64,000 bases of DNA from Psammoneis japonica (GCA_008632985.1 QPGO01000182.1:1-64000); one strand, 5' to 3'. Positions 8,515-64,000 are shown, numbered from the stretch's first letter. Translations and numbers: made by a program. Notes: generated by a model from the letters alone, not told the origin.

Positions 8515-9321
8515 ATCCACACGCCTGATTTTTCATCCTCGCTTCCTGTTGCAGGCTTGCACTTTTTTGTTGAACACAACACGTTCTGATTCTCAATTCT
8601 CAATTTATGCCTTCTCTGTTGTCACCATGTGCCATCGTCCGGTTAACAACTGCCTCGTGGAGTACATCATTTTGTAGTCACAGTTAACCTTGTAGTTCAC
8701 ATTTTTTTGCAGTTTACACGTTGAAGAGCTAAAGCAGAGACGTGAGGGACAGCAGAATGAGGCGTCAATGGAGCTGCCGGAGCGGAGGGATAGAAGGAGG
8801 GGCATTTCGTAGATGGGGCAGGGGGGATTCATGCAAAAGGCAGAGAGGAACCAAACAGCATGGGTGGAAAGATGGTGCGGGATGCTGTGGCTCAAGGGTG
8901 CAGGAGTGGTGGGGGAGGGAGGACTGGTGTGTGCTGCCACAGCGGCAGCAACTGGCAAGTCAGTTCCAGGTGAAATCAGCAGAAGGGAGGAGGGACGCAG
9001 GAGAAGCAAGGGCATGAAGGAGGGCAAAGTGGAGAGCATCAGAGTCATGGAGGTCAGAGGAAGAGGGCCAGGGAGGCCTGGACTGGGAGCAAGTGGCAGA
9101 AAGCAAAGAAACAAAGAGGAAGCAGAAAAAGAAGAAGCCAAGAACACCCAGGTGACCAACAGCAAAAGGAACAAGGAAGATCCTGTTGCTGTTGTTGTTG
9201 AGGGAGTCAACAGCAAGAGAGCCATCAACTGAGAAACAGGATGGTGCAAGGAACTTTTGCCCCATGCCAATGTTGCACTGCAACTCCTTTGTGGATGCAG
9301 AAGCAGAGGGGGCAGGCAGGC

Positions 9322-9597
9322 TGACAGAAATTGAAGGCAAATGGCAAGAATTCAAACAACAACTCCTTGCTGCTGTCTAAACAGCAGATGAGTCTCCGCT
9401 CAGAGACCGTCACAGGAGCCGAAAGATGTGCAAGTCAGTGTGGTCGGGCCACTGTTGTCATTCTTGTGAGCCTTGTGGCTCGAAAGCAAACTGCATCACG
9501 CGCGAACACGCGGAACTAAAGCACACAAAACTGTGCGCGGCAAACCAAACAGTGCGCGACATTTCGCGCGCACCCAAATCCTGTTCAAATCCTGTCA
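9322..9597 (-). repeat. 3' LTR of Copia element
   Basis: Ungapped direct repeat of 16721-16996; TGACAG...CTGTCA ends. Confidence 0.95.
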
Positions 9598-12047
9598 CTC
9601 CCCAGTTTGCTTGAGGAGCCACAGAAACAGATTCGACTTCGGATGGAATGAAGTTCCAGAACATGAGGGGGCAGAGAAGGTCCCAGATTTGGGAGCAACC
9701 CCAATGCTTGCTGAGAATGTCAGCAGGGTTGCGGGAGCCTTCGATGAAGTGGAACTCAAGGCAACCAGAGGCAATTGCCTCAAGCACATGGCGGAACAAT
9801 GGCGCGGTGTGTCGCTTGTGTAACTTGGAGTGCGGGATGGTGGCACTGTCTACAACCGACTTGTTGTCACCGAACATGCAACTGACGTTACGGATCGGGA
9901 CACCAAGGTGGCGCAGGGTGATGCGCAGGTCAACAATCTGCTCAACACAAGTCCTTGCGGCAACAAATTCAGACCCGCAGGTTGCAGTCTCCACGGTGGC
10001 TTGCTTCTCAGAGAAACCAATCAGCCGGGAATTTGTTGAGGAAGTGGAGCATTCCCATGACAGAGCGTCCGGTGAGCATGCAATGGTGCAAGTTTGCATC
10101 GACGCAGTGGGTGGCAGTGACGAACTTGCCAAGGGGCGGTGGAGCATCCTTCGGGATCATCTCTTCTGCTTCGCCGCACACGGAATGCACCCACTCACAG
10201 GCCGGAGCAGGGAGATCCAAACAGCTGGGCTCTTCCATGCGAACGCGGAGAGCGCCGTGTCGCATCTTGGAGAGGTGCCCACAGACGCGTTTGGCACGAT
10301 CCAAGTGGCCTTGACGGGGTGCAGCTCGGAAGCTGGAGAGTGACATGACGGCCGTGGCAATGTCAATTTGACCAAGGGACACTGCCCATTGGAGTGAACC
10401 AACAAGAGACTGGAACTTGTGAATGCCATCGGGCTCCAGCAGTTCGGAAGTGTCCAGCTCGGGGTGGTCACCCTTCTCCAGAGGTGACAGGGCATTGGTG
10501 GCAGGTTTCTCCCCAAACAGTCGGGTGCAGCTGTCGACCATGCGCTCGATGCACTTGCGTGGAGACAGGCACAAGGTGCCGTCGGGATCCCGGGAAAAGT
10601 CGCAACCCAGATGGAACTCAATGGGTCCCGTGCCCTTGAGCTTGAACTTGCACTTTTCCATGAGAGTGTCGACGAAAGATTGAGGGTCCTTCACAGCAAT
10701 GGCAAGGTCATCCACATGAACGGCAATGCATTCACAGTGGTCGCCGTTCCTGCGCATCCAAATGTCGGGTTCGGCGCGGCAGGGGAAGAAGCCTTCAGCT
10801 GGCAGGCAGTTGGCGAAGCGCTCGTGCCAGCGGAGACCGGAGCTGCGCAGTCCACACAGGGCCTTGTGGATGACAAGGATGTGTCCTTCGAGTTTGCCAA
10901 ATTCGGGTCCGGCTGCAATGTAGAGCTTCTCCTTGGTGGTGGCTTCAAGGTGGGCATTGCCAATGTTGGTGGCCCATGTCTCCAACTCGTTGAGTTCGGC
11001 CAGGAAAATCATCAGCCGAAGGCCACGGAGGGAGACTGCTCTGGAGTGGACACCATCGATGGGCACGTCCGTGAGGTGCCCATCAGCTGCGAGTCGTGCC
11101 TTGTGGCGACCGTCGTGTTTCACGTCGCACACCAGGTGCGCTCGGATCTTCTTGTGTCCAGCAGGAGGAGTGGAAGACTCGAAGGGCCTGCAGTCATGGA
11201 AGACTTCGTATTCCCCGAGTTGGTCCATCTCAAGATTAGTTGCGTCTCCCCATTTGTGGTTGCCGTTGCGTTCGTCTGGTGACATGGCGTGTTTGCAGTT
11301 CCGGGGAACTTTGCATCCGCACTTGCAGCGAGGTGCAGTGCGGAAGGAGCGAAGCTTGGCTTGGTTGGCCATGCGAAATGGCTTCTTCTGGTGCCTCGCG
11401 ATGGTGCGGAACCGCTTCCAGCCATCAGCGTCGAGAAGTCCGTTCTCTCGTGCATGGATGGCGCAGGTGACGGGGTCATCCTTGGCGATGATGGCAAGAG
11501 GCTTGGACGTGATCTCCCCACTTTCCCATTCAAGCATGATGTTGTAGCTTGAGCCTTTCCAGGTTGGGTCATGAGGCTTCAGAGGTCCTTCGTGTGACAC
11601 GATGCGTCGAAATTTCCAAACAGCAGTGTCTTCGTCTTCTTGCTCAATGTGATTCATGATGTCGTTGCAGGCAAGGACTTCCTCGTATTCATCGTTGTTG
11701 ACAGAGCAGACAAACTCAGTGAGCTCAGGATTGCCACTCACTTTCCATTCGTGGTCTTCGACGGCCTTGACGATGCGAGCTCTGTGGCGTTGTCCGTCCT
11801 CTTGTGGCTGCATGAGGAAGGTGCGTCTGATGATGTCTTGCGGATCGAAAACTGGCATCTTGGGTGTCCTGATCTCCCCATCAGGAGAATCGACGGGGTT
11901 GTCGTCATGGCGAGATTTGATGATGGGTTCAGGTGGCTCCCCATCAGGAGGATCAAGACGCAGGTTTCAAACGGCAGGATCGGTGGCAGCGGATCGTACG
12001 TTGGACCAGCAGAGGATCTTCTGAGTCTCGTCAGAGAGAATCTTGAA

Positions 12048-12437
12048 GACGCGTTCCAGGTCTAGGTGGGACCTCGCACTGCTGAACTGTGACATCGACA
12101 GTTTTTTGAGTCTCGTCGTATGTCGCGCACGTAGATTTCTACGTGATTTTTTTGATGTTTTGTGTCATTTTACGGTGCACTTGTTGAGTGATCCGTCCAA
12201 CAACTTTTAACATTTTTTGTTACAGCGCGATTCTACAATGTCTTAAGAATCGCGTAGGGCAGGCGAAGTTGCAAAAACGTCGAGTGGCAAGAGGCACAAT
12301 TGTGCCACAAACTTGGCCGTTTGTTTGATGTTGAAGACAAATGTGTCCATTGATTAAATTCTCGTACTACGGAGCTCGCACGTAGAATTCTACGGGCCCA
12401 ATGTCACACGGAGTCCCACCTAGGGCTGGAACGCATC
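12048..12437. mobile_element. 390-bp MITE inserted into the Copia pol region
   Basis: TIRs GACGCGTTCCAGGTCTAGGTGGGAC / GTCCCACCTAGGGCTGGAACGCATC; 4-bp TSD TGAA (12044-12047, 12438-12441); removing it restores HQMTFKILSDETQ. Confidence 0.9.
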
Positions 12438-12764
12438 TGAAGGTCATCTGGTGGCCGACGTGCTCAGCAATGCCAACAAAGCGTCCACGCAACTCACGGG
12501 ATTCGGATGGCCAATCGGAGTCATCGAGGTGGAAGTGCACAGGTTCCCACCAGTGAAAGCGAAGCAATGGGCTGATGTCCGGGGTGGAGCCAGTGAGAGT
12601 CTCGAGGGGTGTGTGCCAGTGGAGACGTGGGGACGCTGCATGGTTGAGTGTGAAGCACACGCACATGAGCGCCAGCAGCCATGTGTGGGCAGGCGAACCG
12701 AAACGATCCATGACAGTGTTCGCCATGTGCTTCACAGTCTGGCATTGACGCTCGGCAAAGTTTT

Positions 12765-13108
12765 GGTGTTGCTGGTGAGGCTCACTTTGCCAGCTGGAGA
12801 TGAAGAGGGCTCGTAAAATCCCGATCACCTTGTTGCTGATCTCAACTTGAGCACGGTCGCTAATGAGTTTGGATGGGGCACCATGCTCACGGATCTGATC
12901 CTCGAGTGTGTTGACAAACTCCTTGTCCGTCTTGGTGGTGTTGCTGGTGAGGCTCACTTTGCCAGCTGGAGATGAAGAGGGCTCGTAGAATCCCGATCAC
13001 CTTGTTGCTGATCTCAACTTGAGCACGGTCGCTAATGAGTTTGGATGGGGCACCATGCTCATGGATCTGATCCTCGAGTGTGTTGACAAACTCCTTGTCC
13101 GTCTTGGT
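12765..13108. repeat. 172-bp tandem duplication within the Copia integrase
   Basis: 12765-12936 and 12937-13108 differ at only two positions by eye; TKTDKEFVNTLEDQI...SEPHQQH is encoded twice. Confidence 0.9.
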
Positions 13109-16100
13109 GCCACAGACGTCAGTGACGGTAGACTCGGTGCCAACAAACAGTTGGGCACTGGTGCAACCAGAGTCGACGGCCGGGGTGTCGGCACAAATGG
13201 TGTCAGTGGCAACAGGCTCGTTGCGGCGGTGCACATTAAGGGCGGGGTTGGGTGATTTGCAGGCCTTCCTAAGGTGTGCGCCGGCGGGCATGCGGACGCA
13301 CTGCGTGGTGCAGTCAAAAGTACGACGGACCGCATCGGCAGGCAGGAAGCCAAAGTGAGGCCGAAGAGACTCGAAAGGGGGGGTCCTTGGGCTGCACAGT
13401 GCGCTCCGGGGGCGGCACGTCGTCGTCCTTGGGGTCAATCGCGTGCAGATGACACTCGTAGAATGCGTCGTCGTTTGGAATGAGGTGATCATCGAGGGCG
13501 GACGTGTGATCGGCAGACAAGGAAGTGGACATGATGGTCTCGTTGACAACGACACGATGACGGCAGTTGCCGCATTCGTCAAATGGGTTGGCAGTGGGAT
13601 CGTCCTGCAGGTCAGAGATCGCGTCGCACCACTGGTCGTCGTCAGTGGCAGAGTGATCGAGGACGGAAGGATCCCATGTGTCATCACCGGTGAGGATGAC
13701 ATGGGGCAGGGTGTCCCATTTGGCATCAGTGCAAGGTCGCATGGCAACACAAGGCAGGCCGCCCTTGATGTCAATGGGGATGACATGGCCATCAGGAGTG
13801 GCAATGCGTTGCAAGCCGTTGGGCACCTTGACAGAGCGATCGTTGACATCCTGTTTGTGCCACTCGAGCTGGCCGCAGGAATGGATGGTCTTGCCCTTGC
13901 CCGTGCATGCGTGCTGATGGAGGATGGCGACGACGGGACCACGCTGGGTCTCAATGACGGCACCCACGGTGACAACAGGGATGTCCACCAATTGATGGTC
14001 GTCAATGCCCTGAACGTCGACTTTGCGAGAGGTGCATGCAATGACGCAAACGTTGTCATCAGCAATGCCGCCGTTGGCCCCACGATCGACTGGAGCACCA
14101 GTGCGTGTGGAGCGATGAGCAGAGGCAGAGCAAATGACATTGTGGTTGTTGACGCGACGGCAAGTGCGGCCGTTAAGTTCCACGTCATCGGCAGAAGCTG
14201 GCGGGGTAGAGGGAGCGGCGGATGGCCCCGGTCGACTGGCGTTGGGGGCTTGGTTAGGAGACAACAGATGTTGCAGATCACCGGGTGGCAGTGGCTTGCG
14301 CTTGGTGAGGTGCGCCAGGATGGGATCATCCGAAGTGGCATCCACACTTGGAGCGGAGTCACCAGAGTCAGCAGGAGTCGTGTTGGACAAGTTGACATCA
14401 CCGTCACTCCCAAGGCATTGGTCGTGAAGGTTGGCCGCAATGGACTCATGGCAGTTGCTGGCTTGCGGGTTGCGGGGAGGCGGACGAGAATGCTCAAGGA
14501 TGATCGCCTTGGAGGAATGGGGCAACGAATCCCAAATCCGTTGGTGGTCGGGAGGGAGACGTTTCCATTGGTCGCCGGTGAGGCTGGGACCACGGGCGCA
14601 GGCAGCATTGGCCTGAAGGACGTCAATGTCGCTGTCAATGTCGCAGAACACATCGTCGGACGGTTCCTCGGAGTGGACATCGTGTGCGCATGTGGCACGT
14701 CGGGGAGCTCGAGGTGTCATCTTGGGTTGAAACGTGCTGTCGCATTGAGCCGCTGCGGAGAGGAGCAAGCCACAGCATTGATCGCATGTGAGGCTCTTGC
14801 CACTCTGCGTGCGATGCTGATCAGCTTGGCTCTTGACAGCACGGAGTTCCTCGACAGGGTGTGCGGCATTCTCGAGCATGGCGTGCTTCTGTCCTTCAGA
14901 GAAGTGGTCACTGGCTGGGATGAGTGCCTTGCACTTGCGCAGCTGATCTTGCCAATGAAGGATGAACCCGTGGGTCGGACCTTTCCAAGTGCCATCACCA
15001 AGACGTGTGGTGGTGAGGTGCGTGAGCAAGGTGGAGGACTCAACAGATGCGTGGGTGGAGGCGAGCGCATGCTCAGACAAGGCACGGTGGACGGTCTGGG
15101 CATCAGAAGACCCCACATTTTTGCGAATGAGAGCCTTGCCCTTGTCGGTGAGAAGAATGCGTTCAAAGACGGCGAACATGTGCTTTTGCTGTTCAGCAAA
15201 GAGCAGTTTGTCTTCGGGGCTGGTCGGTTTGTAAGACGAGTCTAGAATGCACTCAACGTCTTGGGCACGGGCTTGTGCCACAAGTGAGGTGTGCCAAGTG
15301 TGCCACTGCTTGTCGGATTTGAGAGCCGTGAAAGCGGTGGGGTCACGCTTGATGCCTTGCTTGAAGTCTCACACCGGGTCGCGTGCCTTGGTCGGGTTGG
15401 TGACATGCGGAGGTGCGAGGGGTGAGCTGCCGACGGACACAGAAGACATGTGGTTGGGGCTGAGGCGGCAGGCAAGGAACTCGTCATGCGCGAACAATGA
15501 GGAGTCATTGGCAACGTCAAGACCTTCATGTGCTTTGACAATGTGCAGACCAATTAGAGCTGCTAACATGTTCTTATAACCGCGGGGCAAAGGGATCACA
15601 TTGGTGCCGTTGTTGCACTCAAGTGAGTCGATTTGGGACGGCATGAACGCGAACAGTTCTTGATGCGAGTCCATGCCGTCTTGGGTCAAAGCCAAATGAA
15701 GAGGGCTCCCAGCACCTTGGGCAAGCACGGTTCCAACAACGTGCTCGAAACCATCGGTTTGTTGCTGACGAGTGAGAACCATGGTAGACAAAAGTGGTGT
15801 CAGGACAAGCAATTCTTGTTGGGAAGCGAAGGTGGACTTGAAACTTGGGTGAGAATGGACTTGACTTGAAACAGACTTGACTTGAAACCTTGAACTGCCT
15901 TAAAATCAGAAGTCGCCGGGCTGTGCCATCCCGTTCGTTGTCAAGTGCTAAACTTCCCATCTGGTCCGTAGAGTTGTGCCGGCACGTCCGAACCCGCAGC
16001 TGGCGGTGCTTTGGGTTGCTTACGAGCGGAGCAGCGGGTTGTAAACCCCTGCAGGTGAGCTGACCAGAGGTGGACAAGACCCCCGAACCGTTCTCATTTT

Positions 16101-16720
16101 ATGTCGGTTGGATTTCCCGATCAGGCTGGCCAGTTGACGCAGGCGCCAGGCGCTGTGGACGAACGAACAAACGCGGGAAAGCACCCTCGCCCCAACGTAG
16201 GCTGCAATCACGGCCACTTGCTCTCACAGTCGTCCTCGTGGACCTGGCAGAACTGTGGAGCACCAGTGGTCCGGGGTGGATCAGGCACAATGGACTCGGT
16301 GTGCTTGCAGAGTGGCAGCAAAACTGCAGTCCGAAGAGTGGGTGCAAGTTCTTGGCCGTGAAGATGTGTGTGTGCACACATGTCTTCAGCAGACAAAGAT
16401 CCTTGAACATGTGGGGTTCTTGACCGTCAACCGATGAATGGGCACATCAAGGGATGAGGATCAAGGATGGACTTGGATGTGACCGTTGATGCATGTCTTC
16501 AGCAATCAAAGGCAGCACAATCAATCCAGACATCCAGCGGCAAGGAGACTTGACGGTGACGTTAAATTCCTGCCGATGCCTGGCATTGAATGCGCGCAGA
16601 CTTGCCGATGCATGTAGAGTGCACACGGAGGTCCACGCAGAATTGAGGTGGCGTCGTCGGTAAATCAACAACAACGATGGCGGTTGCTCAATGGGTTGAC
16701 AATGAGCAAGACTGTCAATC

Positions 16721-16996
16721 TGACAGAAATTGAAGGCAAATGGCAAGAATTCAAACAATGACTCCTCACTGCTGTCTGGATGGCAGATGAGTCTCCGCTC
16801 AGAGACCGTCACAGGAGCCAAAAGACGTGCAAGTCGGCACAATCGGGCTGCTGTTGTTGTTCTTGTGAGCCTTGTGGCTTGAAAGCAAACTGCATCGCAC
16901 GCGAACGCGCGGAACTAAAGCACACAAAACTGTGCGTGGCAAACTGAACAGCGTGCGACATTTCGCGCGCACCCAAATCCTGTTCAAATCCTGTCA
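16721..16996 (-). repeat. 5' LTR of Copia element
   Basis: Ungapped direct repeat of 9322-9597. Confidence 0.95.
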
Positions 16997-17923
16997 CAGG
17001 CAGGCCTGGAGGAGAGCAACAAGGGGCTTTGGGTGCAGCAACATCAGCGGTGATGCCATGTCACACTCCAACTCTTCATCCACCAACCATGGGCTGGATT
17101 TTTGGCACCCGCTGAGAGAGCAAAAGCTGGTGGTCGTGTGAAGGCAAGCCGTGTGTGCAATCAACAAAATGGTGTTGTGAATGTGCAAAAGTCTCGCCAC
17201 TTGTTGTCTCGCTCAATTGCCGTGCAGATGCAGCCAACTCACACTGTCAATCCTCCGACAAATCCAATGTCATGGTTTCATGTCGTCAAACCCACTTTGG
17301 CAATGCCAATGACAAGAGGAGCATTTTTCAAGACTTTGACAAAGCAGCTCCAATGTGAGCAGCCAAGTGTTTTTGAGTGGGAGAGGGCAGGGCGTGGGGC
17401 GGATTTTGGAGTGAAAACGCAGAGTGAAGCTGGTGTGCTGTTCAAAAGAAGCAGTCAAACAACGTTCACAAAGTTGCACATTGATGATGCTCTCCTGCAG
17501 AACAACAAATTCAGGCAATGGAAGTGCCCCCTTGCTGCTTGCACATTCGCACTGTAGTCTACTACCTACCGTACCATACACAGTGTGTATGAATAGAGAG
17601 GTCGCGCGAAGACGATGCATCAGAACACACCATCACCCGTCGCCAGTCGGTCACGCAGTCACCACCGAATCCACCAAGCACGTTGCACTGTCGTAGACTT
17701 CAGAGCACGAAAGCGAAGCCATGCCACTCCCTCTGCTGAAGTGCCCTCTGACACTGTTTTCTACTGTCTGTGATTGATCTGCCGACATTCAAGTGTACCA
17801 GCACTGGTGCCGTCCGACACGACTTCAATTCAATTCAATCCTATACATTACACAACTACTTTCAGCTGCTGCTGCCCAGTGGGGGCTTTGAATCGCCTGA
17901 ACTTTCCTTCAATCCACGAGCGA

Positions 17924-20707
17924 ATGAACTCGATGCTTGTTCTTCTGCTGCTGCTCTTTGCCAATTGTCTCCAACACGTCAACGCAGCAGTTTCCTGCAA
18001 CACATCAGAAGCATGTGAAGAATTACTGTACCCCGGTTCCGAGTGTTCTGAGGGTTTCTGTACCAATCCGTACACTAAGGGTGGCTGCTTGGCCAATCGA
18101 GTGCCTGGATGGAAGAAGATACGAGTCTGCAGCAGCGACGACCCACCGATTGCGGCCTCCTTGGGCCATTGTCGTGAACCCTATCAAGGACTAGAATATA
18201 CAGAAATTCGATTGGCTGGACAAAATTGGGAAAGTGCATTTTTCATTGCATGGATTCAACAAATTATTCTTTCCGAGCTACTCGATGTCCCCACGAGCCT
18301 CGAGTCGGGTGAAGCGGGGAAAAAGATTAACTTTTATGACCCAGAGAATGCGTTAGATTATGGCATTGCCTACCCATGGGATGGGCTGGCAACAGCGACA
18401 AGAGTCAAGGATTGTCGTGCAGTCGACAATAGCAATAGCGAAAACTATGAAGTGTGCGCGCACGTCATGTCCGAAGTTTGGCACAATCGAAGGAACAAAG
18501 TGGAAGAACTAGAAGAGGCTGGTGTGATTGAGCCCTTTCAATTTCTCGGTGTGTTTGCCAAGGCAGGATGGTACATTCCTCGCTTCACGGGCAAGCGTGA
18601 TCCGACATTGCTTACGTATTTGGGTCTCAAGGGAGAAGAGAACCGAAGAAAGCTTGCCGAGACTTTCTTGACACCGACAACGTGGTCCGAGTACTGTAAT
18701 GAAGTGTCGGCTGATAATTGTACGGAAACCAACAATGTCACGGCTCGAGCACCGAGAAACAACGAAGAAGGTGAAATGTACTTTTCCGAGGGCCTGTACA
18801 CTGGTCATTTCCGAGCTACAGCTGAAAATGACTGCGATGCCAACCCTACCACCTGCCATGGACACTTTGCAGACTATCCGTGCGGTTGGAGCACAGTCTT
18901 TCAAGCTCAGGCATACCACAATAATATTGCGCTCAACACGACTGGTGACGAACCGTTTGGTTCCGGATACTCCTATCCGAGATTGATTGAAGTATGGTAC
19001 GCGGCAAATGCTACAAAGTCAGATGTCATTATGCATTGGTGGCAACCTGAAGCACTCTACCAGCTCTTTCTTGGAACCGATGCTGAGTTTCAGAAGGTGG
19101 ACTTGCCACCCGCGACACTGGAATGTCTGCAGTCACGAGTCGATATCGACTTGGTTCGATGCTCGGGTGACTTTGTCGAAGAGCAAGGCAGTCCAGAGGG
19201 TGCATGCGATGATCCAGATCAAGCACTGATGAAGCTCATTAGTGCTGGTTTGTACGAGAAAATCAACGATCCGTCAATACCGGAGGCAAGACGAAGTCCG
19301 GGATATGATTTGTGAATGACTTTAGCATCGAATCTTTGCAGCTGGATCAGATTTTTTATCTTTGGCTGAGCCGATCTGGTAAGTTTGTCAAGCATCGTTG
19401 TGTTAAGTAGCTTTGCGTCTCTAATGTCGTCGCCGTTTTCGTTTGATGCAGTCGATCGGTACGGCTTTGCCCCTCGCGACGCCCTTTGCCAATGGGTTTC
19501 CGATAATCTTGATTTCATTCAGTCCTTTGTCCCACGGACTTATCCGAGAGCTATAAAAGAAGACCAACAATTCGACCCGCTCAGCTACACCTCGTTGGCA
19601 TTGGGTATTGTCGCCGTGGTGCTTGTGTGCTTCTCATGTGCGGCAACATATGGAAAGCGCGAAAAGATGCTCGTTCGCCATGCTCAGCTCGACTTTATGT
19701 TTCTGTTGTTGGCCGGACTCCTCCTTGTTTCGATTGCCTCAGTTATAAGTGCACTTTCAGATACCGATGCTGAATGCGTGTCTGTTGCCTGGTTGATAAA
19801 TGTTGGATACACGTTGGAACTTGTCCCTTTGATTATCAAGGTATACGCAATAAATCGCTTGACACAGGCTGCAAAGCATTTCCGAAGAATTGAACTGAAA
19901 CGGGTGACATTGTTTGGCGCAGTCTTTTTACTAACTGCTCTCACAATCATCTTCATGATTATCTGGACAGTGGTTGACCCTCCGCATATTGCATCGCGGT
20001 ACCTCTTGACAGACGAGGTAAACGATGCCGGCGAGACTATTGTCTCTGTCAGCTACTATTGTCGCTCTGATTCTGAGGCTTGGGGCTTTGTTAGTCTCGG
20101 AAGCCAAGGCTTTCTGCTGTTTGTTGCAAGTGTGCTGGCCTTCCAGATGAGAAATCTGAGACACGAGCTCAACGAGTCGCATTCTTTGGCCATCTTGATC
20201 TACTCCCATTTCATCTTTTGGGTTTTGAGGCTTGTGTCATTCGCTTGGCTCGAGAATAGTGACTTTGCTTCCGCCGTTCCTGGTATTTACAGCCTCATCC
20301 TTGGAGTCGATTCCATTGCTTCGATATGCATCTATTTTCTGCCCAAATTTTTCCTCAAAGATGAGGTGGCACGGTCAGCGACTTTCTTTGATACTGGCAT
20401 GCCCACACCCATGACGCACGCACAAGGCGATAATGGCACGGTCCCAAGCCCGCCACTTTCAGCCACGGGAGTTGCATCACTAGAAATCGCCGATGCGGGT
20501 AGTGATGACAATAAGGCCGGGTTTGACGAATTGCATGGAGCCGAGTTTGTCCGGTACGAAGGTAGTTGTCCTCACTGCGGCTGTGAGATCGAACAGGACT
20601 TGTTGCGTTCAGAACTTGAGGTTTCTGCCGACATGATGATTCCCTTGAAGGGTGCGTCATCGGATGGTAAAAAATTCGTGGAGATAGAACCAGTCGCGGC
20701 AGGATGA
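17924..20707 (+). CDS. Class C (7tm_3 / GABA-B-like) GPCR with large Cys-rich extracellular domain; intron 19379-19451; apparent 1-nt frameshift at ~19310
   Basis: Signal peptide; NWESAFFIAWIQQIILSELL periplasmic-binding-like segment; 7 TMs with WLINVGYTL, WTVVDPP, CRS and LNES motifs. Confidence 0.75.
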
Positions 20708-23188: not shown

Positions 23189-23449
23189 GCCGACGCCATT
23201 TTCAAAAAAGAAATGGTACAGTCTTAAAGCCAGCAATGAAATTTTAATCTCAAGGGGTAACAACACCTTGGCCTATCATAGCGTTCCTCGGTTCAGCATC
23301 TTCTCCTGTACATTTCACGTCAACACCGGACACGTTTTGACCCAATGACTCCAAAGTGAAAATCTATTTAAATGCTCAAACTTGAAAACTTTCGCGTGAC
23401 AGTTTTCGCCCTCCAGAGACCGCGGATAACACAAAAAATTGTGAATGTA

Positions 23450-31955: not shown

Positions 31956-32219
31956 GATGCTCTTCTACAGTATGATGTTGGATGATGATGTCGACTGTTT
32001 AGCATTGAATTTTGGAATGATTCTGATTCTGAAATCTGTTTTTGGAATTTCGCAGTTCGCAAATTTATATAATAATTTCTGGGTTCTGAGGTTAATCATT
32101 ACGATATATTATTTTTTAATAGCTGGATGGTCAATGTCATTTTGAAATATTTTCTCTTTGGTTGTTTCATTCTGCTGCGTTTCCCGCTGGTCCTCAGCAT
32201 TTTGTTTTGCCAGCAGACT

Positions 32220-52966: not shown

Positions 52967-53660
52967 ATGAAAAAACCAAGATGGACAGCAGAAGCAGCAG
53001 AAAGTGATTGCTGTTTCCCTCCTCCAGGCTCTGTCCCAAAACCAAACGACATGCAAAGATGTCACGGCAAGCCAACTCTAGCCATTGGTGTCTGGTTCTT
53101 TGCCATGAGTTTCTGTGAGCACTCGAAGACCAAAGGCGACCAACGAACCAAGCTGCTGACCCTCAAGAATCTCTGCTTCTTCCAAGACAACACCAAACTG
53201 CAACACAAAGACCCAGACCTGGCCTCAGCTGATGCCATCTCCATCACCTTTGAGTGCCAGAAGAATGATGAAAGATGTGACACTGTCACAATGTTTTGCA
53301 CCGGAGACAACTTGCTCTGTCCTGCCCATGCATGGGCAGCAGTCAGCAGTGGTCCATTGGGCACTGTTCTGACCACCAGGCTCTGTCCCAGACTCCCCAG
53401 TGTGCCCTGTTTGCACCAATGGAAAACTCCACTCTCTCCTCCTCAGTCATCCATTCCAAGATGCAAGCAGCAGCAACTGTGATCAGCAAGGACAAGAAGC
53501 CAGGCTGCAAAGCTCATGAGGTTGGTGCTCACTCCATTTGCTCAGGAGCAGCCATGGCAGTGTGTCTTGCACATGCACCTGTTTGCTTGATCAGCATCAA
53601 TGTCTCTTTGCAAATGATCTCAAGTGCCAACATTTCTTTGCAACATTCCGGACTCTGACC
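52967..53660 (+). pseudogene. Tyrosine recombinase remnant of a YR element (DIRS/Ngaro/Crypton-like)
   Basis: FFAMSFCEHSKT...SITFECQKND...LCPAHAWA and EVGAHSICSGAAMAVCLA match degenerate R-x-x-E and H-S-x-R-x-G-A-A motifs. Confidence 0.75.
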
Positions 53661-53875
53661 CCAAAGATCCTGGAACCTGCAATCGCCACAAACTCCAAGC
53701 CACTGATGTGAGCAACGGCACATGTCAAGTGCAGTTGATGGCACAACTGCAATCATTTGCTCTCTTCACTTGAGCGGCTCAGATTTCAGCAATCAGATTG
53801 AAATTTTGCAAGTGAGTCATGAGGGTGCATCAACTGCAGCACTGTCGGGTCCCTGGGGGATCATTCACACTGGGG

Positions 53876-54303
53876 ATGAAAATTTCTCCAGGCCAAACCA
53901 TTGGGTTTTAATGTCAGACTGTTTGCACTCGGGGCTGGAGTCCGCGACCTGTGGTGAAGACTTGGTTGGATGGGCCATTGTTTGATCAGACCATGTGGAT
54001 GCATTGATTCTTTCAGCCGGCGATGCACACAACATTCGGTGAATTCAATTTTGCGCGCCGATGTCAACAGTCATTTCTCAACGACTTTGGAAGTTGTTGG
54101 CGAAGCTGTGACAATCATCGTCGTGCATTGCAAGCTCTGTCGAGTTGTCTTGGTCTTCTAAATTCCCCAAACCCACCCTGCATCAACAACTGCGGCGTGT
54201 CAGGAATGAAAATTTCCCAGGCCAAACCGTCAGGTTTTCACGTCAGACTGTTCGTTTCGGGATTGGAACCCGCGACCTGTGGCGAGGACTTGGTTCGATG
54301 GGT
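53876..54303. repeat. ~100-bp direct repeat pair (53876-53976, 54206-54303)
   Basis: ATGAAAATTTC..CAGGCCAAACC...GTCAGACTGTT...CCGCGACCTGTGG.GA.GACTTGGTT.GATGGG occurs twice. Confidence 0.8.
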
Positions 54304-54499
54304 CGATGGGTCGATGGGTCATCGACGAGCGCTGCAGAGCGCACGAAGCTCATCACTTTCTTTGCGATGCTCCGCGCATGTGGCGCGCGCTGAAGATCCG
54401 AGCGTTTGTCCGTCGTCCGTCCATTATTTTCTCCGCGTTGCTTTTCTGTCGCCCAGTCACACAATGGCGGTCAAGTTGAGGAGAGACAAAAGTCTAACC

Positions 54500-55882: not shown

Positions 55883-58399
55883 TTAGTCAACCTGTTCCAT
55901 AGCAGATTCCTCATTGTCATCGTCTCCATCCAACGGGGGCAAGTCTTCCATATCATCATCCATCTCGTCCTCGTCATCATCATCAATCGAAAGACCAAGC
56001 TTGACAAGACGGTGGATGCGCGAAGCAAAGGTGGCGGGCTCATCAAGAGAGAATCCACTCGTGAGAAGAGAGGTATCGTAAAGCAACCAGATAAGATCCT
56101 TGACGGTCTTGTCGCTCTGGTCAGCGTCAGCCTTTTCACGGAGAGCGGTAATGATGGAGTTGGTGGGGTTGATCTCCATGGTCTTCTTCGAACTCATGTA
56201 GGCAGACTGAGAGGCGTCACGGAGAGCCTGAGCCTTCATGATGCGCTCCATATTGGCGGTCCATCCAAACTCGCCCGTAACAAGGCAGCAAGGAGAGTCA
56301 GCGAGACGGTTGGAAATGACAACCTTCTCCACCTTATCATCGAGAACCTCCTTCATGAGCTTGCAGAGACCCTCCGTCTTGGCCTTGGCCTCCTCGAACT
56401 TCTTCTTCTCTTCCTCGTCATCGGCAAGGTCGAGTCCTTCCTTGGTAGCACTGAGAAGTTTCTTTCCGTCAAACTCCTTGAGCTGCTGGACAGCGTACTC
56501 GTCAATAGGATCGACAAGGTAAAGCACCTCGTATCCCTTCTTCTTGAGCTTCTCAAGGAACGGAGAGGTTTCGACACTCTTCTTGGACTCTCCAGTAATG
56601 TAGTAGATACCGGGCTGCTTGTCGTCCATGCGGCTGACATAGTCCTCGAGCGAGGTCATCTCGTCACCACTCTTGGTGGAGTAGTAACGCAAGAGCTTGG
56701 CAATCTTGGCACGGTTGGTCGAGTCCTCGTGAATACCAAGCTTGAGGTTCTTCGAGAAGGCCTCGTAAAACTTCTTGTAAGCATCCTCGTTCTCGGTCAA
56801 GTCGTTAAACATCTCGATACACTTCTTGACGAGATTCTTCTTGATGACACGGAGAATCTTGTTTTGCTGAAGAGTCTCACGAGAAATGTTGAGAGGCAAA
56901 TCCTCCGAATCGACAACGCCCTTGATAAACTGCAACCACTCGGGCATGATATCCTCGCAGTTGTCCATGATAAAGACACGACGGACGTAAAGCTTAATGT
57001 GGTTGAACTTCTTCTTGGTTCCACCCTCAAACATATCAAACGGAGCGCGCTTGGGGCAGAAGAGAATCGCCTTGAACTCGAGCTGTCCCTCGACGGAAAA
57101 GTGCTTGACGGCCGCGTGCTCCTCCCAATCGTTGGAAATGGACTTGTAAAACGCCACATACTCGTCTTCGGTAACCTCGTCCGGCTTGCGCATCCAAATG
57201 GGCTTGGTGTTATTGAGATGCTCCCACTCGTGGCTCACCTCCTTGATCTTTTTCGTTTTCTTTTCCTTCTTCTCCTCGTCCTCGTCAACTTCTTCGACCT
57301 TGGGCTTGTCCTCGTCGCCCTCTTCTTCCTCCTCGTCATCATCGTCGGAATCAGTCACTTCCTTTTCGGTAGTCTTCTCCGTGTACAGCATAATGGGGAA
57401 TCCAATAAACTCGGAATGCTTTTTGACCAAATCCTTGATACGCCTCTCCTCAAGATACTCCGACATGTCCTCCTTGAGGTGAAGAACGATACGAGTACCA
57501 CGTTTGAGTCCGGCATCGGGCGAGTCGGTAATGGTAAAGGATCCACCGGCTTCGGACGTCCACGTGTGGCACGAGTCGTCATTGTTCTTGGAGACAACCT
57601 CCACCTTGTCGGCGACAAGGTAGGCGGAATAGAAACCCACACCAAACTGTCCAATCATGGAAATATCGGCACCGGCCGAGAGGGCCTCCATAAAGGCCTT
57701 GGTTCCGGACTTGGCAATGGTTCCGAGGTTGTTGATGAGATCGGCCTTGGTCATGCCAATTCCGGAATCCTCAATCGTCAAGGTGTTGTTGGCCTTGTCG
57801 GCAATCAGCTTGATTTGCATTTCCGAGTCCGAATCCAACACGGTGCTGTCCGTGAGAGACTGGTAACGGATCTTGTCGAGCGCATCGGACGAGTTGGAAA
57901 TGAGCTCACGAAGGAAAATCTCCTTGTTGGAGTAAAACGTGTTGATGACTGTTGAAAGAGAGTAGAGAGAGATGAAATGGAGGTTAGTCGCGGTATTTTT
58001 CGAAACACGCGTCTCGGAGGGAATTTACGAGTACCGGTTCCTCCGTAGATTTCTACGGGAGAAAACGCGCGAAACTCTCCGAAAGATTTTTGCGTCATGG
58101 TCAATCAACACAACAACAAGTACTTACTCAACGAAAGGAGCTGGTTGATATCAGCCGAAAAGGCATAGCTTTCAGCTTCAGCAGACTGTAAGTAAAGAAA
58201 GGTAGAGGAAGCGAGTGGGTGAGTTGCGTGTCTATTACAAACGCGTATGATCCACGAACAGAGCAGGAACAAAAGCAATGCCATGCACACGAACACTGTC
58301 CGCCAGCGCAATCCTCGCAGTCGCCATTTTCACCTCCAATTCATAGATTGCTGTCATGTACAACAGATCAGATCATTGTCAATCCTTTTCACGTACCAT
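55883..58399 (-). CDS. HSP90: Cytosolic heat shock protein 90 (exons 58399-58397, 58185-58128, 57948-55883)
   Basis: [53 protein letters not shown]-terminal MEQVD. Confidence 0.97.
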
Positions 58400-58905: not shown

Positions 58906-59777
58906 ATGAGTGGTAAGTTCAGCAATGGCGTTGATGATTGAAATGGGGCTCGGAAGATTCTGTTGTGGAGTGATTGCGACCATACGGTATGGCAGTGGCG
59001 CATCTGATTTTGCGATCTTTTTGCGCTTGCGCGCTACGTCACGGCTGTCAGTCGAGTCATTGTTGTTCTTAAGGTGCCGGCTGCGCTTTTCGAAGCAATG
59101 GTTGACAATGGCTACACTTTTGTTGTCGTCGATGCGGTTCATCATGCCGCTCAGCGACGATGAGGAATCTTTGTGTTTGTTCCTGCGATGCTTTCTACGT
59201 GGCGTTTGTACCAGATTCTACGCAGTTGGTCCTCGCACTGTATTGTTTTTCGATTCACTTTCGGTAATTTTTCAGAAAATTTACTCACCGTTTTGTTTCT
59301 GTTTTACTCTCTAAAACCATTACAGCTGTAACTGGAGAATCAGTCGGTATCGACTTGGGTACCACGTATTCGTGCGTGGGTGTCTGGCAAAATGATCGCG
59401 TTGAGATTATTGCCAACGACCAGGGTAATCGTACCACTCCCTCGTACGTTGCCTTTACCGATACGGAGCGTTTGATTGGTGATGCCGCCAAGTCGCAGGC
59501 TGCCATGAATGCTTCCAACACGGTCTTTGATGCCAAGCGTTTGATTGGACGCAAGTTTTCCGATCCCGGTGTTCAGTCCGATATGAAGCACTGGCCCTTT
59601 ACCGTTGTGTCTGGTACGGGTGGTACTCCCATTATTGAAGTGGACTACAAGGGCGAGAAGAAGTCCTTCAAGGCGGAGGAGATCTCTTCCATGGTTTTGG
59701 GAAAGATGCGCGAGATTGCCGAGGCCTACCTTGGCAAGGAGGTCAAGAATGCCGTTGTCACGGTGCCGGCCTACTTT

Positions 59778-59813
<36 letters not shown>

Positions 59814-61289
59814 TCCATCTCGGGTCTTAATGTGCTTCGTATTATCAACGAGCCCACGGCTGCCGCCATTGCTTATGGTTTGGACAAGAAGGGCGAGGAG
59901 AAGAATGTTTTGATTTTTGATCTCGGTGGAGGAACCTTTGATGTTTCTCTCTTGACGATTGAAGAGGGAATCTTTGAAGTAAAGGCTACCGCTGGAGACA
60001 CCCACTTGGGTGGAGAAGATTTCGATAACCGCATGGTGGACTACTTTTTGACCGACTTCAAGCGTCGCCACCGCAAGGACATGTCGGAGAACCAACGTTC
60101 TCTCCGTCGTCTCCGTACGGCTTGCGAACGTGCCAAGCGTACCCTTTCGTCCTCGACGCAGGCACACATTGAGATTGATTCCCTCTACGATGGTATCGAC
60201 TTCAACGCCACCATTACGCGTGCCCGTTTTGAGGATCTCTGTATGGATTACTTCAAAAAGTGCATGGAGCCCTGCGAGAAGGTTCTCCGTGACGCCAAGA
60301 TTGCCAAGAACCAGGTGCACGAGGTTGTCTTGGTTGGTGGATCTACTCGTATCCCCAAGATTCAGTCCATGCTTTCTGATTTCTTCAATGGCAAGGAGCC
60401 CTGCAAGTCCATCAACCCCGATGAGGCTGTCGCCTACGGTGCCACGGTACAGGCTGCCATTTTGTCTGGCGCGGACAAGTCCGAGAAGCTTTCCGAGCTT
60501 TTGCTTTTGGATGTCACGCCTCTCTCGCTTGGTCTCGAGACGGCTGGTGGTGTCATGACGACGCTCATCAAGCGTAACACCACGGTGCCTGCCAAAAAGA
60601 CTCAGACCTTTTCGACGTATGCGGATAATCAGCCCGGTGTGTTGATTCAGGTCTTTGAGGGCGAGCGTTCCATGACTCGTGATAACAACCTGCTTGGCAA
60701 GTTTAACCTCGATGGCATTCCTCCCATGCCTCGTGGTCAGCCCCAGATTGATGTCTGCTTTGATATTGATGCCAATGGTATCTTGAACGTGTCGGCCCTC
60801 GAGAAGAGTACCGGTAAGGAGAACAAGATTACCATTACCAACGACAAGGGTCGTTTGTCGCAGGACGAGATTGAGCGCATGGTTGAAGAAGCCGAAAAGT
60901 ACAAGGCCGAGGACGATGCCAACCGCAACCGTATCGAAGCCAAGAATGGTTTGGAGAACTACTGCTACTCGCTCAAGACGTCGATTGACTCGGAAGAGGT
61001 CAAGGACAAGATCCCCGAGGAGGACAAGACTGCCTTGACGACTGCCATTGATGAGGCTATCTCGTGGTTGGATGCGAACCCTACTGCTGAAAAGGAGGAG
61101 TACGAGGAGAAGCAGAAGGCTTTGGAGGGTGTGGCGATGCCGATTCTTCAGAAAATGGCCGGTGCCGGTGGTGCTCCCGGAGGTATGCCTGGTGCGGACA
61201 TGGGCGGTATGCCCGACATGGGTGGAGCCGGTGGTGCTCCTCCGGCCGATGACCCTGCTGGTGGGCCAACAATAGAAGAAATTGATTGA
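58906..61289 (+). CDS. HSP70: Cytosolic heat shock protein 70 (exon 58906-58912, intron 58913-59325)
   Basis: Spliced N-terminus [44 protein letters not shown] repeats; C-terminal GPTIEEID. Confidence 0.97.
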
Positions 61290-61293
61290 GCAA

Positions 61294-64000
61294 ACGCTGT
61301 TGGTTGCGAAAGAGTCGTTGTCATGGTCGTCATACATGTCGGGCTTGGTGTGGTTCTTTTTTACCAAACTTCAGTCTTTTCGGTTTTAGGTGACTGTGCT
61401 TTCACTACTTTAGAATGATGTTTACTTGATATATCGTTTATGATCTTCTTTGTGCTGTGTGTGTAAAATGTGTTCTCTAATACAATGTATCATCAGCATG
61501 GTAGCAGGACTCGACTATCAGTAAGTGCGAGGTAGCGGTTTTGAACCGGCGAGAAAGTTGGTGCATGATGGACGCCATCGTCGGCACGACTGGTGATGCT
61601 GGGAGGACACCTGCCATTGTGCGTCTGAGTTCAACTCTGTCGCAACATTGTCCGGTGTGATGGCCTCTAGAGTAGAGTGGAAGGGTAAGACCAGCCAATC
61701 TCACGGCACCTGTTAAAGGAAATGGCAAGCAAAGAACGAACGGCGACTGTCATGTGAACGCGAACCTCATTTCACTGATCCTTTGTGCCTTTTCCAAATG
61801 ACAGGAGCAATTTCATCAAATCAACTGCAGTTCTGCAGTGCTTTACATTCATCGCGATCCCACAAGAGGACCGCCTCGCCAAGGGGAAAGCCACAAGTTT
61901 GCTGAGAAACATTTTTGGCCGACACAAATGATGGACAATCCAACGCCACATGTCGGCAATGTGTCTGGCAGTCAAAATGATGGAGCACAGCAATCAAACG
62001 TGGTCACATGCTTGCAACATGACTGGCACATCTGGCGAGCGGCTTCACAAGCCACAGTGGCACTGGCGGGAGACGTCGCAGTTTCCTGGGATCAAGGTTC
62101 CTTCTTCAAGGATGGGCTTCATGTCAAAGACACCGGTGAAGTGGACACAGCAGCACCTGCTGAATCCGCCAACACAGTCGGCGCCATTGCCAGCCTTGCA
62201 CCACAAAATCTTGATGGGACAAGGGAGATGGTCGTAACGATTCTGCATCTTTTCTTCAAAGCGCTTGCAGTCAAACTGCGAGAGGCTCTTGAAGATCTTG
62301 AACGTGAAAAAGCCAACCTCCTTGGCCTTGGGGACGTTGAGGTGACGTTCATTTGGCAAGGTGACTGGAGCAACCTGAGTGGAGTCAAAAGCAACCTGTG
62401 ATCTGTTTGTCCCTCCAATGCCACGAACCAAAAAGTCAAAAGCTTCGAGATCCAAGAGATGCTGCTTGGTGATTCCAATGCAAGCACCAAAGTCGAAGTC
62501 ACGGCTCATGACTTCGTCCACCGTGCGACCACCGAGCTCGGGCCACTTCTTGACTCCACACAAATGCTCGACGGCTTCATCGAGAGCTTTGTCAGACATG
62601 CGCCGACCGCTGGCAGCAATCTGGATGTTCATCTCGTCAATCTTGCGGCAAGTGCTCTTGCGACGGCGAGATTCGCGGCAACTCATGTTGGTCTTTTTCA
62701 CGAAACTCACCATTGTCACTTAGACGCTGGCGCTTGTTGGACTCGTTCAAGTTGGCAATCCTTTCGCATCCATCCTGCAGCTGAGTCGACTTGGTGCAAT
62801 CAATGCTCTTGGTTCCAATGCTGCCGACGGTGCCATCGCAACGTTCGACAGCCGCCATGTCCACCTTGGCAGGAGCAAGTTGGGAGATGCGCGATGTCAT
62901 GGCTTGACAGAGAGCTTTGTCGTTCGGTGGGGTGACACCAAAATGCTTGTAGACGGTCTTGGCAGATTCAACAATTGCGGTGATTTCCGACTTGGGTTTG
63001 TTGCGACGTTGCGTGGTGGGGTCACGCCACTTGAGATCGAGCATGGCAACAACATTGAGAGCGTCAAGATGACTCATGAGTCCAATGCTTGCACGCAGGA
63101 TCTCCAGCCAAGCCAAGAATGGTGGGAGGGTGCGTCTTTCCATCAATTTCCTTGACTCCCTTGATTTCCTGTGGTGGGAAATTGAACAGCTTGGCACACT
63201 TGTTGACACCGGCTTGCGTCAGCTGACCGCAGACGGAGACAGCACGCAGTTTCGCTTTCTCTTCTTTGGTGTGCGGGCGCGGCTTGGTCATGGCAAGTTG
63301 CTGTGTTTTTTGCTTTTGCTGTTGCTGCGGCTGTTGTTTGTGCTGATGGAGTTGTGTTGTGTGTCGGTGTTGATTGTGGCGGCCGCGGCAAAATTCGCTG
63401 CGTTGTCTTTGCATGATGGAGAAGCGCCGTTCAATCCAGTGCGGCGCTCCACCTGCTTGTCACACTTGGACGCAGGCTGCGCATTCCCGTCGGCACAAAA
63501 TCCCCGCCAAAGGGATTTTTGAATCGACCAGCACTGAGGTGCTGTGCGATTGAATGCGCACTGGCCATCTTGTTGGTTGTGGCAGCAATTCTACGCGCGG
63601 GTTCCGCTGTTGCGTCTTTCCCGCCAAGAAGTTTTTTGGACCAACCGCGTGGTTGCTCGTGGTTCTGTCACGGAGTCATCAATTCATGGTTGTGTTTGCA
63701 TGGAAGAATTGACAAATCTCATCATTCGTTTTACGCTGTTGGTTGCGAAAGAGTCGTTGTCATGGTCGTCACACATGTCGGGCTTGGTGTGGTTCGTTTT
63801 TACCAAACTTCAGTCTTTTCGGTTTTAGGTGACTGTGCTTTCACCACTTTAGAATGATGTTTCTTTTGACTTTGTGCGCGCATGGCATCTCATTCTTTGT
63901 GCTGTGTGTGTAAAATGCACTCTCCAATGCAAGGTTTCATCAGTGTGGTGGCAGGACTCGACCATCAGTGAGTGCGAGGTGGCGGTTTTGAACTGGCGAT
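61294..64000. mobile_element. Repeat element with long direct repeats (from 61294 and from 63733 to window end) enclosing a degenerate minus-strand ORF
   Basis: ACGCTGTTGGTTGCGAAAGAGTCG... repeated at 2439-bp spacing; interior is TpA-depleted with broken ORFs 61772-63414 (-). Confidence 0.65.

Follow-up and report, generated by a model that had tools for sequence, protein, structure and literature searches.

Why should several sharply bounded stretches of a diatom contig be almost devoid of the dinucleotide TpA? The question is raised by the first 64,000 nucleotides (nt) of the Psammoneis japonica contig QPGO01000182.1 (GCA_008632985.1; the whole of this stretch is called the window below), which hold a Copia long terminal repeat (LTR) retrotransposon and several old relics. 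We delimited the TpA-poor domains by segmentation on TpA density and computed observed/expected (o/e) ratios over both strands, with the remaining 31,571 nt serving as the host reference. The domains lie at 8812-17555 (less a 389-nt insertion), 23470-24795, 32218-34844, 36521-54413 and 61774-64000. Taken as six stretches that cover 32,428 nt, with the flanks of the Copia element counted separately, they contain 120 TpA versus 1,327 expected at the host rate. An initial annotation, made from the sequence alone, had described five sharply bounded domains poor in TpA and rich in CA/TG, and these are borne out: TpA o/e is 0.00-0.12 inside them versus 0.58 elsewhere, and CpA/TpG o/e is 1.48-1.87 versus 1.15.

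The depletion is strong in every domain. TpA o/e is 0.12 in the Copia element (9322-16996; CpG o/e 0.80, GC 0.56), 0.00 in its flanks (8812-9321 and 16997-17555; 0 TpA in 1,069 nt, CpG o/e 0.23), 0.05 at 23470-24795 (CpG o/e 0.20), 0.09 at 32218-34844 (CpG o/e 0.34, CpA/TpG 1.78), 0.04 at 36521-54413 (49 TpA in 17,893 nt, CpG o/e 0.18, CpA/TpG 1.87) and 0.08 at 61774-64000 (CpG o/e 0.84), a domain that extends past the end of the window. There are 0-6 TpA per kb between 37 and 54 kb and 1-19 between 9 and 17 kb, versus 21-67 in the gene-bearing parts, and the longest stretch without any TpA (1,937 nt, 38885-40822) has a probability of about 1e-35 at the host TpA frequency. The limits are sharp: at the edge of a domain, TpA loss ends over about 100-250 bp. 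Near 17555 there is no TpA over 16916-17555 and there are eight in the 40 nt beyond; near 36.5 kb, 19 TpA fall within 36202-36491 and one in the following ~1 kb. ApT, ApA, ApC, ApG and GpA are near host values in the domains, with ApA o/e at 1.09-1.15 in Copia and the 36.5-54.4 kb block and up to 1.36 in the smaller domains, versus 1.14 for the host. GpC o/e is raised (1.01-1.42 versus 1.00), as would be expected where a change of TA to CA or TG turned GTA into GCA and TAC into TGC.

The domains fall into two classes. CpG is kept in Copia and 61774-64000 (o/e 0.80-0.84), which are young, and has been lost along with TpA in the Copia flanks and the other three domains (0.18-0.34), which are older. 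CpG decay by deamination of 5-methylcytosine (5mC) is also present, and it explains part of the CA/TG excess and none of the TpA loss. The TpA sites that survive in the domains (n = 121) have neighbours different from those of host TpA (n = 1,292; chi-square 110.7, P = 1e-19). The context ATAT is found at 0 of the 121 residual sites, ATAG/CTAT and ATAC/GTAT stand at 0.08 and 0.23 times their host shares, and CTAA/TTAG and TTAA at 3.8 and 3.5 times theirs. Removal has been most thorough where TA is followed by a pyrimidine in a one-strand reading, which equals a purine followed by TA, as the site is palindromic and the side cannot be assigned. The ratios of Cys to His among replaced Tyr residues (described next) showed no consistent context preference.

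The direction of change is given by comparison with outgroups and with a duplicate. We aligned the 652-amino-acid (aa) Copia frame at 10011-11966 (minus strand) with 40 of 120 listed relatives, to which it is 53-62% identical, and called a column conserved if the same residue occurs in at least 80% of the 40 (n = 332). The window copy is identical in 283 of these columns and changed in 49. Tyr stands out: two of its 19 conserved columns are kept, ten read Cys (TGY), five His (CAY), one Trp, one Phe and none Arg, such that 15 of the 17 changed Tyr columns represent TA→TG/CA. For the non-Tyr residue types, 67-100% of conserved columns are kept. The Tyr of the YVDD motif of the reverse transcriptase (RT) reads His. 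Altogether, the 49 replacements comprise 21 single TA→TG/CA changes, 13 single CpG→TpG/CpA changes, 8 other single changes and 7 that need at least two. Tyr makes up 3.4-5.6% of residues in all 40 relatives versus 0.6% in the window Copia frame; as 40 of 40 are Tyr-normal, the lineage is not natively poor in TpA. The cleanest polarity evidence is a duplicated segment that is visible over 267 nt only, as the window ends there. Its unmutated copy (61294-61552) starts 8 nt past the HSP70 stop codon, outside the TpA-poor domain, and its mutated copy (63733-63999) lies inside domain 61774-64000. Ten sites are TA in the former and CA or TG in the latter, with none reversed.

The timing can be read from the LTRs, which in a retrotransposon are identical at insertion. 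The 3' LTR of Copia (9322-9597, minus strand, 276 nt, with the ends TGACAG...CTGTCA) aligns without gaps to the 5' LTR (16721-16996, minus strand, 276 nt), and the two differ at 29 of 276 sites, always by transitions and never by transversions. Eight events are adjacent CA-versus-TG doublets (16 sites), ten are CG versus CA or TG (10 sites), one is TA versus TG (1 site) and two are A/G differences beside such sites (2 sites). The doublets are mainly former TpA because most CpG persist, so that double loss of a CpG in opposite directions should be rare. The changes thus followed insertion, and the alignment indicates that the same TpA sites were lost in the two LTRs by independent events. Eight visible doublets would imply about 16 fully converted sites in addition to two partly kept, which would amount to about 6% of dinucleotides, the host TpA frequency. 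On this rough estimate from one LTR pair, ~33 of 36 TpA copies were lost versus 2 changes in ~390 other non-CpG site-copies, and the implied ratio of rates at TpA and at other sites, equally rough, is several hundred. In a control pair of host ion-channel paralogues (1,021 nt, 81% identity), CA/TG doublets are absent and 83 differences are transversions. The large block contains another old pair (38552-38754 and 44142-44344), with 12 CA/TG doublets over 205 nt.

Both strands were changed. Cys and His replacements number 10 and 5 in the window Copia and 11 and 15 in P0231, a Copia protein from another data set. Replacement of Tyr by Arg (CGY), in which both bases of the dinucleotide would have changed, occurs in none of the 17 changed Tyr columns of the window Copia and in none of the 20 conserved Tyr columns of each of P0231, P0163 and P0239, which are the rows that were checked for it among the 120 homologues. 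This absence fits duplex DNA in which the first hit removes TpA on both strands. No CA/TG strand skew per kb was found beyond the level of host windows and no strand-coordinated clusters were seen, the order of Cys and His along the open reading frame (ORF) looking random. The initial annotation had proposed A:T→G:C change at TpA on both strands that wrecks the proteins of elements, and the Tyr columns, the LTR pair and the duplicate pair all support this; TA→TG/CA dominates the polarised spectrum.

The element itself is well defined. An identical 9 nt (CAGGCAGGC) is present at both ends of Copia as a target-site duplication (TSD) of at least 5 bp, and since the same nine letters stand on both sides, Copia is a single bona fide insertion. 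Its internal region (9598-16720, minus strand) has polyprotein homology over 15785-9656 with an RVT_2 match (E 2.4e-20), and residues 2-1897 of an intact polyprotein (1,911 aa, from a related metagenome contig) align to it in the same order. Copia therefore combines the Ty1/Copia hallmarks of TG..CA LTR ends, a short TSD, RVT_2 and a collinear polyprotein; no Pfam integrase match was found in it at E ≤ 0.5. Copia was inserted within an older TpA-free, CpG-poor relic, whose remains form its left (8812-9321) and right (16997-17555) flanks. Searches by tblastn with 40 relatives, with the 1,911-aa polyprotein or with the ORFs of eight related loci matched 9575-15785 only and revealed no second Copia in the window, although very degraded remnants could escape them.

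Two later arrivals in Copia kept their TpA. An insertion resembling a miniature inverted-repeat transposable element (MITE) in the coding region (12049-12437, 389 nt, TSD TGAAG, terminal inverted repeat matching at 23/28) interrupts the polyprotein homology and is unmutated, with 16 TpA, a host-like TpA o/e of 0.58 and a CpG o/e of 1.25. It is absent from other Copia copies, in which the loose end at 12048 continues into the sequence that follows the insertion. In the N-terminal part of the polyprotein, 172 nt are duplicated in tandem (12764-13109, minus strand); the units are 98.9% identical, with no CA/TG doublets, and both retain the same two residual TpA, 172 nt apart. Judged from these features, the duplication is later than the hypermutation. 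As the MITE-like element and the duplication, both later arrivals, keep TpA, the process appears to have been episodic. The summed depth of the MITE bin in the contig comparison below is very high, and the MITE may be a member of an abundant family.

We compared positions 5000-24999 with three runs (X1, X2 and X3) of one public sample at 80% likeness. Run X1 has a unique k-mer depth of ~58-61 and contigs of up to 315 kb, and its reads are therefore accurate. Its contigs cross the edges of TpA-free sequence and differ from the window at 0 positions over 8115-9110, at 4 over 16969-21239 (these two contigs being at unique depth) and at 3 over 22729-24197. The initial annotation had raised the prospect of long-read miscalls at modified bases; the accurate-read contigs agree with the TpA-free sequence, which is not an artefact of assembly. 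Over Copia (9002-17005) the summed k-mer depth is 6e4-1.5e5 versus ~60 for unique sequence and 17,643 contigs were matched, which puts the family at about a thousand copy equivalents or more. Relative to the window copy, the other copies show transitions at 494 places and transversions at 83. Other copies carry TA where the window has CA or TG at 10335 (99% of depth), 11278 (90%), 10009 (82%) and 11064 (79%), and among the 40 variant places examined there are 12 with CG in the others versus CA or TG here and four adjacent pairs that are CA/TG doublets. TpA loss is thus specific to individual copies, and the window copy is among the more heavily mutated. Neither the relatives nor the other genomic copies are free of TpA or Tyr, a possibility that the initial annotation had also named.

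Some further observations came from the same contigs. The joints 9424>16847 and 9597>16848 suggest solo-LTR or rearranged copies. Over 24168-24480 run X1 has two contigs, one identical to the window (depth 41.6) and one with 25 differences and 26 gap letters (depth 32), which are probably two haplotypes within a TpA-poor domain. Run X2 has next to no depth over 9002-17005, which carries no weight on silencing. Run X3 contains hardly any of the searched words, and we used its few contigs solely as additional family copies.

The same footprint is found outside this sample. Among the 120 listed relatives from other data sets, three Copia proteins are poor in Tyr and rich in Cys and His, with Cys or His in 17 (P0231), 9 (P0163) and 4 (P0239) of 20 conserved Tyr columns. 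On the strength of their sequences, these three seem to have undergone the same hypermutation to different degrees, in organisms or samples other than this one. Relative to the intact L001 polyprotein, P0231 keeps 7 of 36 Tyr and has 15 His and 11 Cys in their place, with none reversed; the next commonest changes are Ile→Val, Thr→Ala, Leu→Pro, Leu→Ser and Ile→Thr, all expected of TA→TG/CA. When metagenome contigs were scanned with P0231 as query, eight loci came out, with 76-82% identity and a normal TpA o/e of 0.47-0.70.

The content of the other domains bears on what is targeted. Domain 23470-24795 is an old hypermutated domain that is now single copy (X1 depth 62-91 versus ~60 for unique sequence), and domain 32218-34844, likewise old, contains no Pfam family at E ≤ 0.01. 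No recognisable transposon protein was found in the largest, 18-kb block (36521-54413), which is CpG-depleted too, by tblastn with Copia relatives or by Pfam. Across the TpA-poor domains, Pfam searches of 150 stop-to-stop frames of at least 75 aa at E ≤ 0.5 gave only chance-level matches, with the exception of a pseudogene fragment of tubulin-specific chaperone D (TBCD, tubulin cofactor D; 45100-45700, plus strand; PF25767, E 4e-11). This fragment has 100 homologues at E ≤ 1e-3 in an exhaustive representative search and corresponds by tblastn to about residues 360-560 of ~1,150-aa proteins. Its conserved Arg residues (codon CGN) have become Trp, His, Cys, Gln or stop (TGN or CAN), as expected of CpG decay, and it has two in-frame stops; a search for longer-protein homologues with a 107-aa piece of it gave no match. 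A weak second TBCD match lies on the opposite strand at 46509-46673. The fragment may be a decayed duplicate or may have been picked up by a transposon. The Tyr→Cys/His replacements that the initial annotation had described in two Copia elements and a tyrosine recombinase remnant were thus recovered for one Copia (15 of 19 Tyr) and not for a second one; a recombinase remnant was not found in the Pfam search of the 150 frames, which very degraded remnants could escape.

We consider it very probable that a nuclear process of the diatom converts TpA to TpG or CpA in silenced transposon or heterochromatin domains after integration. What the sequence shows is A:T→G:C change at TpA on resident chromosomal DNA, with either strand about equally likely to be changed. 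One hit removes TpA on both strands, so that a site becomes CA or TG, never CG. The domains are brought close to saturation, with about 90-100% of TpA lost and much faster than CpG decays, and at their edges the loss stops over about 100-250 bp. Elements would be irreversibly inactivated through the loss of all Tyr codons and of ATA, GTA, CTA and TTA, and no new stop codons would arise. We infer that the process is enzymatic and directed at silenced selfish DNA as a genome defence, and by analogy it is probably of the same kind as the TpA-only hypermutation of Bigelowiella natans discussed below. The chemistry that we favour, at a likelihood slightly short of even, is deamination of adenine to hypoxanthine in TpA context on DNA; oxidation or modification of thymine is a distinctly less likely alternative, and context-specific error-prone repair is about as unlikely as the thymine route. 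A wider proposal, which we put forward somewhat more tentatively than adenine deamination, is that a dedicated enzyme system shared by diatoms, chlorarachniophytes and perhaps protists of the stramenopile-alveolate-rhizarian (SAR) group widely may recognise duplex TpA in silenced transposons and integrated viruses and deaminate its adenine, in one self-limiting hit, in bursts and without creating stops. A possible lead to candidate enzymes is given by Iyer et al. 2011 (PMC3239186).

Several points weigh against in-place conversion as a defence. Defence is our interpretation of the pattern, and a passive property of the chromatin state would leave the same footprint. The process is deduced from one 64-kb window and contig tables, and run X1 comes from the same sample, is possibly the source of the assembly and is of unrecorded library type, so it is not strain-independent. 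Variant contexts cover 40 of 586 places, so the family-wide spectrum is seen in part. Six of 38 examined Copia variant places and two LTR sites are A:T→G:C changes outside TpA, and specificity for TpA is accordingly high and not absolute. Simple repeat targeting, finally, is at odds with the sparing of the apparently abundant MITE and of 61294-61552, with the single-copy state of 23470-24795 today and with the inclusion of a host-gene fragment. The confinement to repeats asserted in the initial annotation therefore has to be qualified. Targeting is not simply a matter of copy number; it might reflect a minimum length, how recently the DNA arrived or shielding by transcription. Domains might be picked out through small RNA, through 5mC or histone marks, or through homology.

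Other explanations can be weighed against the same observations. As TpA is symmetric, the attacked base is not readable from the sequence, and the same in-place process could act on thymine, with oxidation of the TET/JBP type to 5-hydroxymethyluracil (5hmU) or 5-formyluracil (5fU), mispairing with G and a T→C change. An old report is said to have described a TpA preference of dinoflagellate 5hmU. That 5hmU pairs mainly with A counts against this route, and nothing in the window data shows 5hmU or 5fU in diatoms. A dinoflagellate TET/JBP enzyme makes 5hmU on repeats and aids transposon silencing, according to the accessible parts of two reports (PMC11572971, PMC11071213), but the base-resolution 5hmU map of Breviolum minutum gives, in the part accessible, no sequence motif (PMC11071213), and on balance we regard the thymine route as unlikely. 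It is slightly less likely again that no dedicated defence exists and that TpA is gradually worn down by a passive, context-dependent bias of the chromatin state, for instance through error-prone patch repair with a WA-type hotspot or through inefficient repair of heterochromatin. The non-repeat material within the domains and the ordinary CpG decay in the old ones accord with such a bias. The young Copia LTRs do not, having lost by our estimate ~33 of 36 TpA copies versus 2 of ~390 other non-CpG ones with no transversions; moreover, a WA hotspot would deplete ApA too, whereas ApA is unchanged, TpA loss outpaces CpG loss, and later insertions at the same place are untouched.

Editing before integration is improbable. 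Here the RNA of the element would be deaminated by an ADAR/ADAT-like enzyme, or its cDNA in the manner of APOBEC3, and then inserted, which agrees with the sharp end of TpA loss near the element ends and with the unaffected state of a DNA-transposon-type MITE inside Copia; the B. natans preprint (bioRxiv 10.64898/2026.01.13.699255) also notes, in its Discussion, the 5' U preference of ADAR. Yet both strands changed within one ORF (10 Tyr→Cys and 5 Tyr→His), outcomes at the 8 doublet sites common to both LTRs are on opposite strands, and saturated single strands should yield TA→CG, whereas none of the 17 changed Tyr became Arg. The non-LTR flanks (8812-9321 and 16997-17555) and the host-gene fragment are likewise TpA-free, TA persists in other family copies at sites lost in the window, and in B. 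natans the mutations arise in DNA that is already integrated, according to the accessible part of the same preprint. We give very little credence to a sequencing or assembly artefact in which modified heterochromatin bases were miscalled and TA was read as TG or CA. It is true that the assembly technology is unrecorded and that the matching runs come from a single sample, but contigs built on exact 31-mers at ~60x agree over three TpA-free edges (0, 4 and 3 differences), a systematic miscall should read a given site alike every time rather than give CA to one LTR and TG to its partner, and the signature recurs in proteins of unrelated data sets. Least probable of all is that the elements are natively poor in TpA through selection against UpA in RNA or through foreign origin. 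UpA is under-represented in many genomes and host DNA has an o/e of only 0.58 here, but all 40 relatives are Tyr-normal, conserved catalytic Tyr residues have been replaced, the eight related metagenome loci have a TpA o/e of 0.47-0.70, and other genomic copies keep TA.

In-place, TpA-erasing hypermutation has been described once before, in a 2026 preprint on B. natans by Mettrop et al. (bioRxiv 10.64898/2026.01.13.699255), so the statement in the initial annotation that no described pathway does this has been overtaken. According to the accessible part of that preprint, two viral regions integrated in the genome of mutation-accumulation lines had 231 mutations, of which 230 were A→G/T→C, all at TpA, at a rate of ~6e-7 per site per generation in some lines only; the authors propose an ADAT2-type adenine deaminase, and TpA-depleted coding sequences were enriched in reverse transcriptase and DDE domains. 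The two cases share changes that are almost only A→G/T→C, at TpA, giving TpG or CpA on either strand, in discrete regions of foreign DNA, in a manner that is non-constitutive there and looks episodic here. Rates in the B. natans type are orders of magnitude, about 1000-fold, above background, and the rough estimate from one LTR pair here is several hundred-fold. In the window we likewise found transitions, TpA context and discrete regions with unaffected neighbouring genes, one domain including a host-gene fragment. They differ in that B. natans is a chlorarachniophyte (Rhizaria) and P. japonica a stramenopile diatom, diatoms not being mentioned in the accessible part of the preprint, and in that mutations were measured de novo there whereas a historical footprint is read here. 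The main targets there, the insertions of a nucleocytoplasmic large DNA virus (NCLDV) and of a virophage, are reported as far from saturation, with a TpA Rho of 0.45 or one that even exceeds the mean of the genome. An LTR retrotransposon and old relics are the targets here, with near-total loss (o/e 0.00-0.12) and CpG decay alongside. The diatom case is thus stronger and differently targeted, and it has internal proof of post-insertion action. A search of full texts outside subscription journals revealed no account of TpA loss in the transposons of diatoms.

Better-known systems resemble the diatom process in part. In fungi, repeat-induced point mutation (RIP) is a dinucleotide-specific transition hypermutation that inactivates chromosomal transposon copies and leaves a genome of two-compartment composition, features that the diatom case shares. 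In RIP, however, C→T at CpA creates TpA, whereas the diatom process runs the opposite way, destroying TpA and raising CpA and TpG; RIP mutates both duplicates, whereas 61294-61552 was spared here and 63733-63999 mutated; and RIP makes stop codons where the diatom process makes none. RIP is also premeiotic and involves cytosine methyltransferases of the RID/DIM-2 type. Deamination of 5mC has the same products, TpG and CpA, and CpG-type changes occur at 10 LTR sites and in 13 amino-acid columns, but it cannot remove TpA, the loss of which is faster and more complete here than that of CpG. In animals, retroelements are edited on cDNA by APOBEC3 (C→U) and on double-stranded RNA by ADAR (A→I, with a 5' U preference), in both cases before integration and on a single strand. 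Deaminase-type hypermutation fossilised in LTR elements is common to these and the diatom case, which differs from them in hitting both strands, in the divergence of the LTRs and in including DNA other than retroelements. TadA and ADAT2-ADAT3 deaminate adenine beside a 5' U or T, and the weak preference found here for TA followed by a pyrimidine resembles the UAC in the anticodon loop of tRNA-Arg; in nature, however, these enzymes work on tRNA loops and are not known to act on chromatin DNA in vivo. Amphioxus ADAT2 is a DNA-active relative of the tRNA adenosine deaminases, according to the accessible part of its report (PMC10354150). Dinoflagellate 5hmU is comparable as a base-level mark of transposons in another SAR lineage (PMC11572971, PMC11071213), but as far as the accessible text goes it is an epigenetic mark that has not been shown to be mutagenic and has no TpA motif at base resolution (PMC11071213).

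The phenomenon is thus neither peculiar to one organism nor limited to integrated viruses, and the existence of two lineages makes comparative genomics possible for finding the enzyme. The annotation of diatom genomes is affected, as hypermutated elements escape Pfam and increase local GC while keeping long open frames that lack Tyr. Should the chemistry prove to be adenine deamination in DNA, this would be the first natural system of its kind acting on chromosomal DNA as a defence. A shared SAR enzyme system, if it exists, would be nature's A:T→G:C equivalent of RIP in fungi and of the APOBEC defence, and natural DNA adenine editors might be drawn from it.

Between the domains, the window carries ordinary eukaryotic genes for HSP90, HSP70, a mitochondrial carrier, a CAAX protease, ion channels and a class-C G-protein-coupled receptor (GPCR). 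The best named HSP90 matches are 89-92% identical and belong to diatoms (Skeletonema, Cyclotella, Ditylum and Thalassiosira), with none identical, in line with the diatom origin assigned in the initial annotation; by this similarity the source is a diatom and not Bigelowiella. HSP90 (55886-58024, minus strand) seems to have a short 5' intron, as its frame opens upstream of any plausible start, and stands head to head with HSP70 (59268-61286, plus strand), ~1.2 kb away. The frame antisense to HSP70 (59343-61370, minus strand) matches Pfam PF10712, 'NAD-specific glutamate dehydrogenase', at E 2.7e-123. We take PF10712 to be a spurious family built on antisense HSP70 frames and this match to be no gene. 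No paralogues of HSP70 or of other host genes were found inside the TpA-poor domains by tblastn, the ion-channel pair excepted. This pair consists of two paralogous ion-transport genes (6923-8511 and 21636-23185) that lie 14.6 kb apart, have normal TpA and are 81% identical in nucleotides over 1,021 nt. Each has a TpA-free relic within ~300 bp downstream. Homology between these relics, that is between the Copia flanks and domain 23470-24795, was rejected, as local alignments after purine/pyrimidine recoding scored 40 and 44 versus shuffle means of 41 and 52, with a positive control at 751. Contigs of run X2 skip GT..AG introns at 7848-7929 and 19377-19451, an RNA-like behaviour despite the label 'DNA?' of that run, and they confirm the splicing of the ion-channel and GPCR genes.

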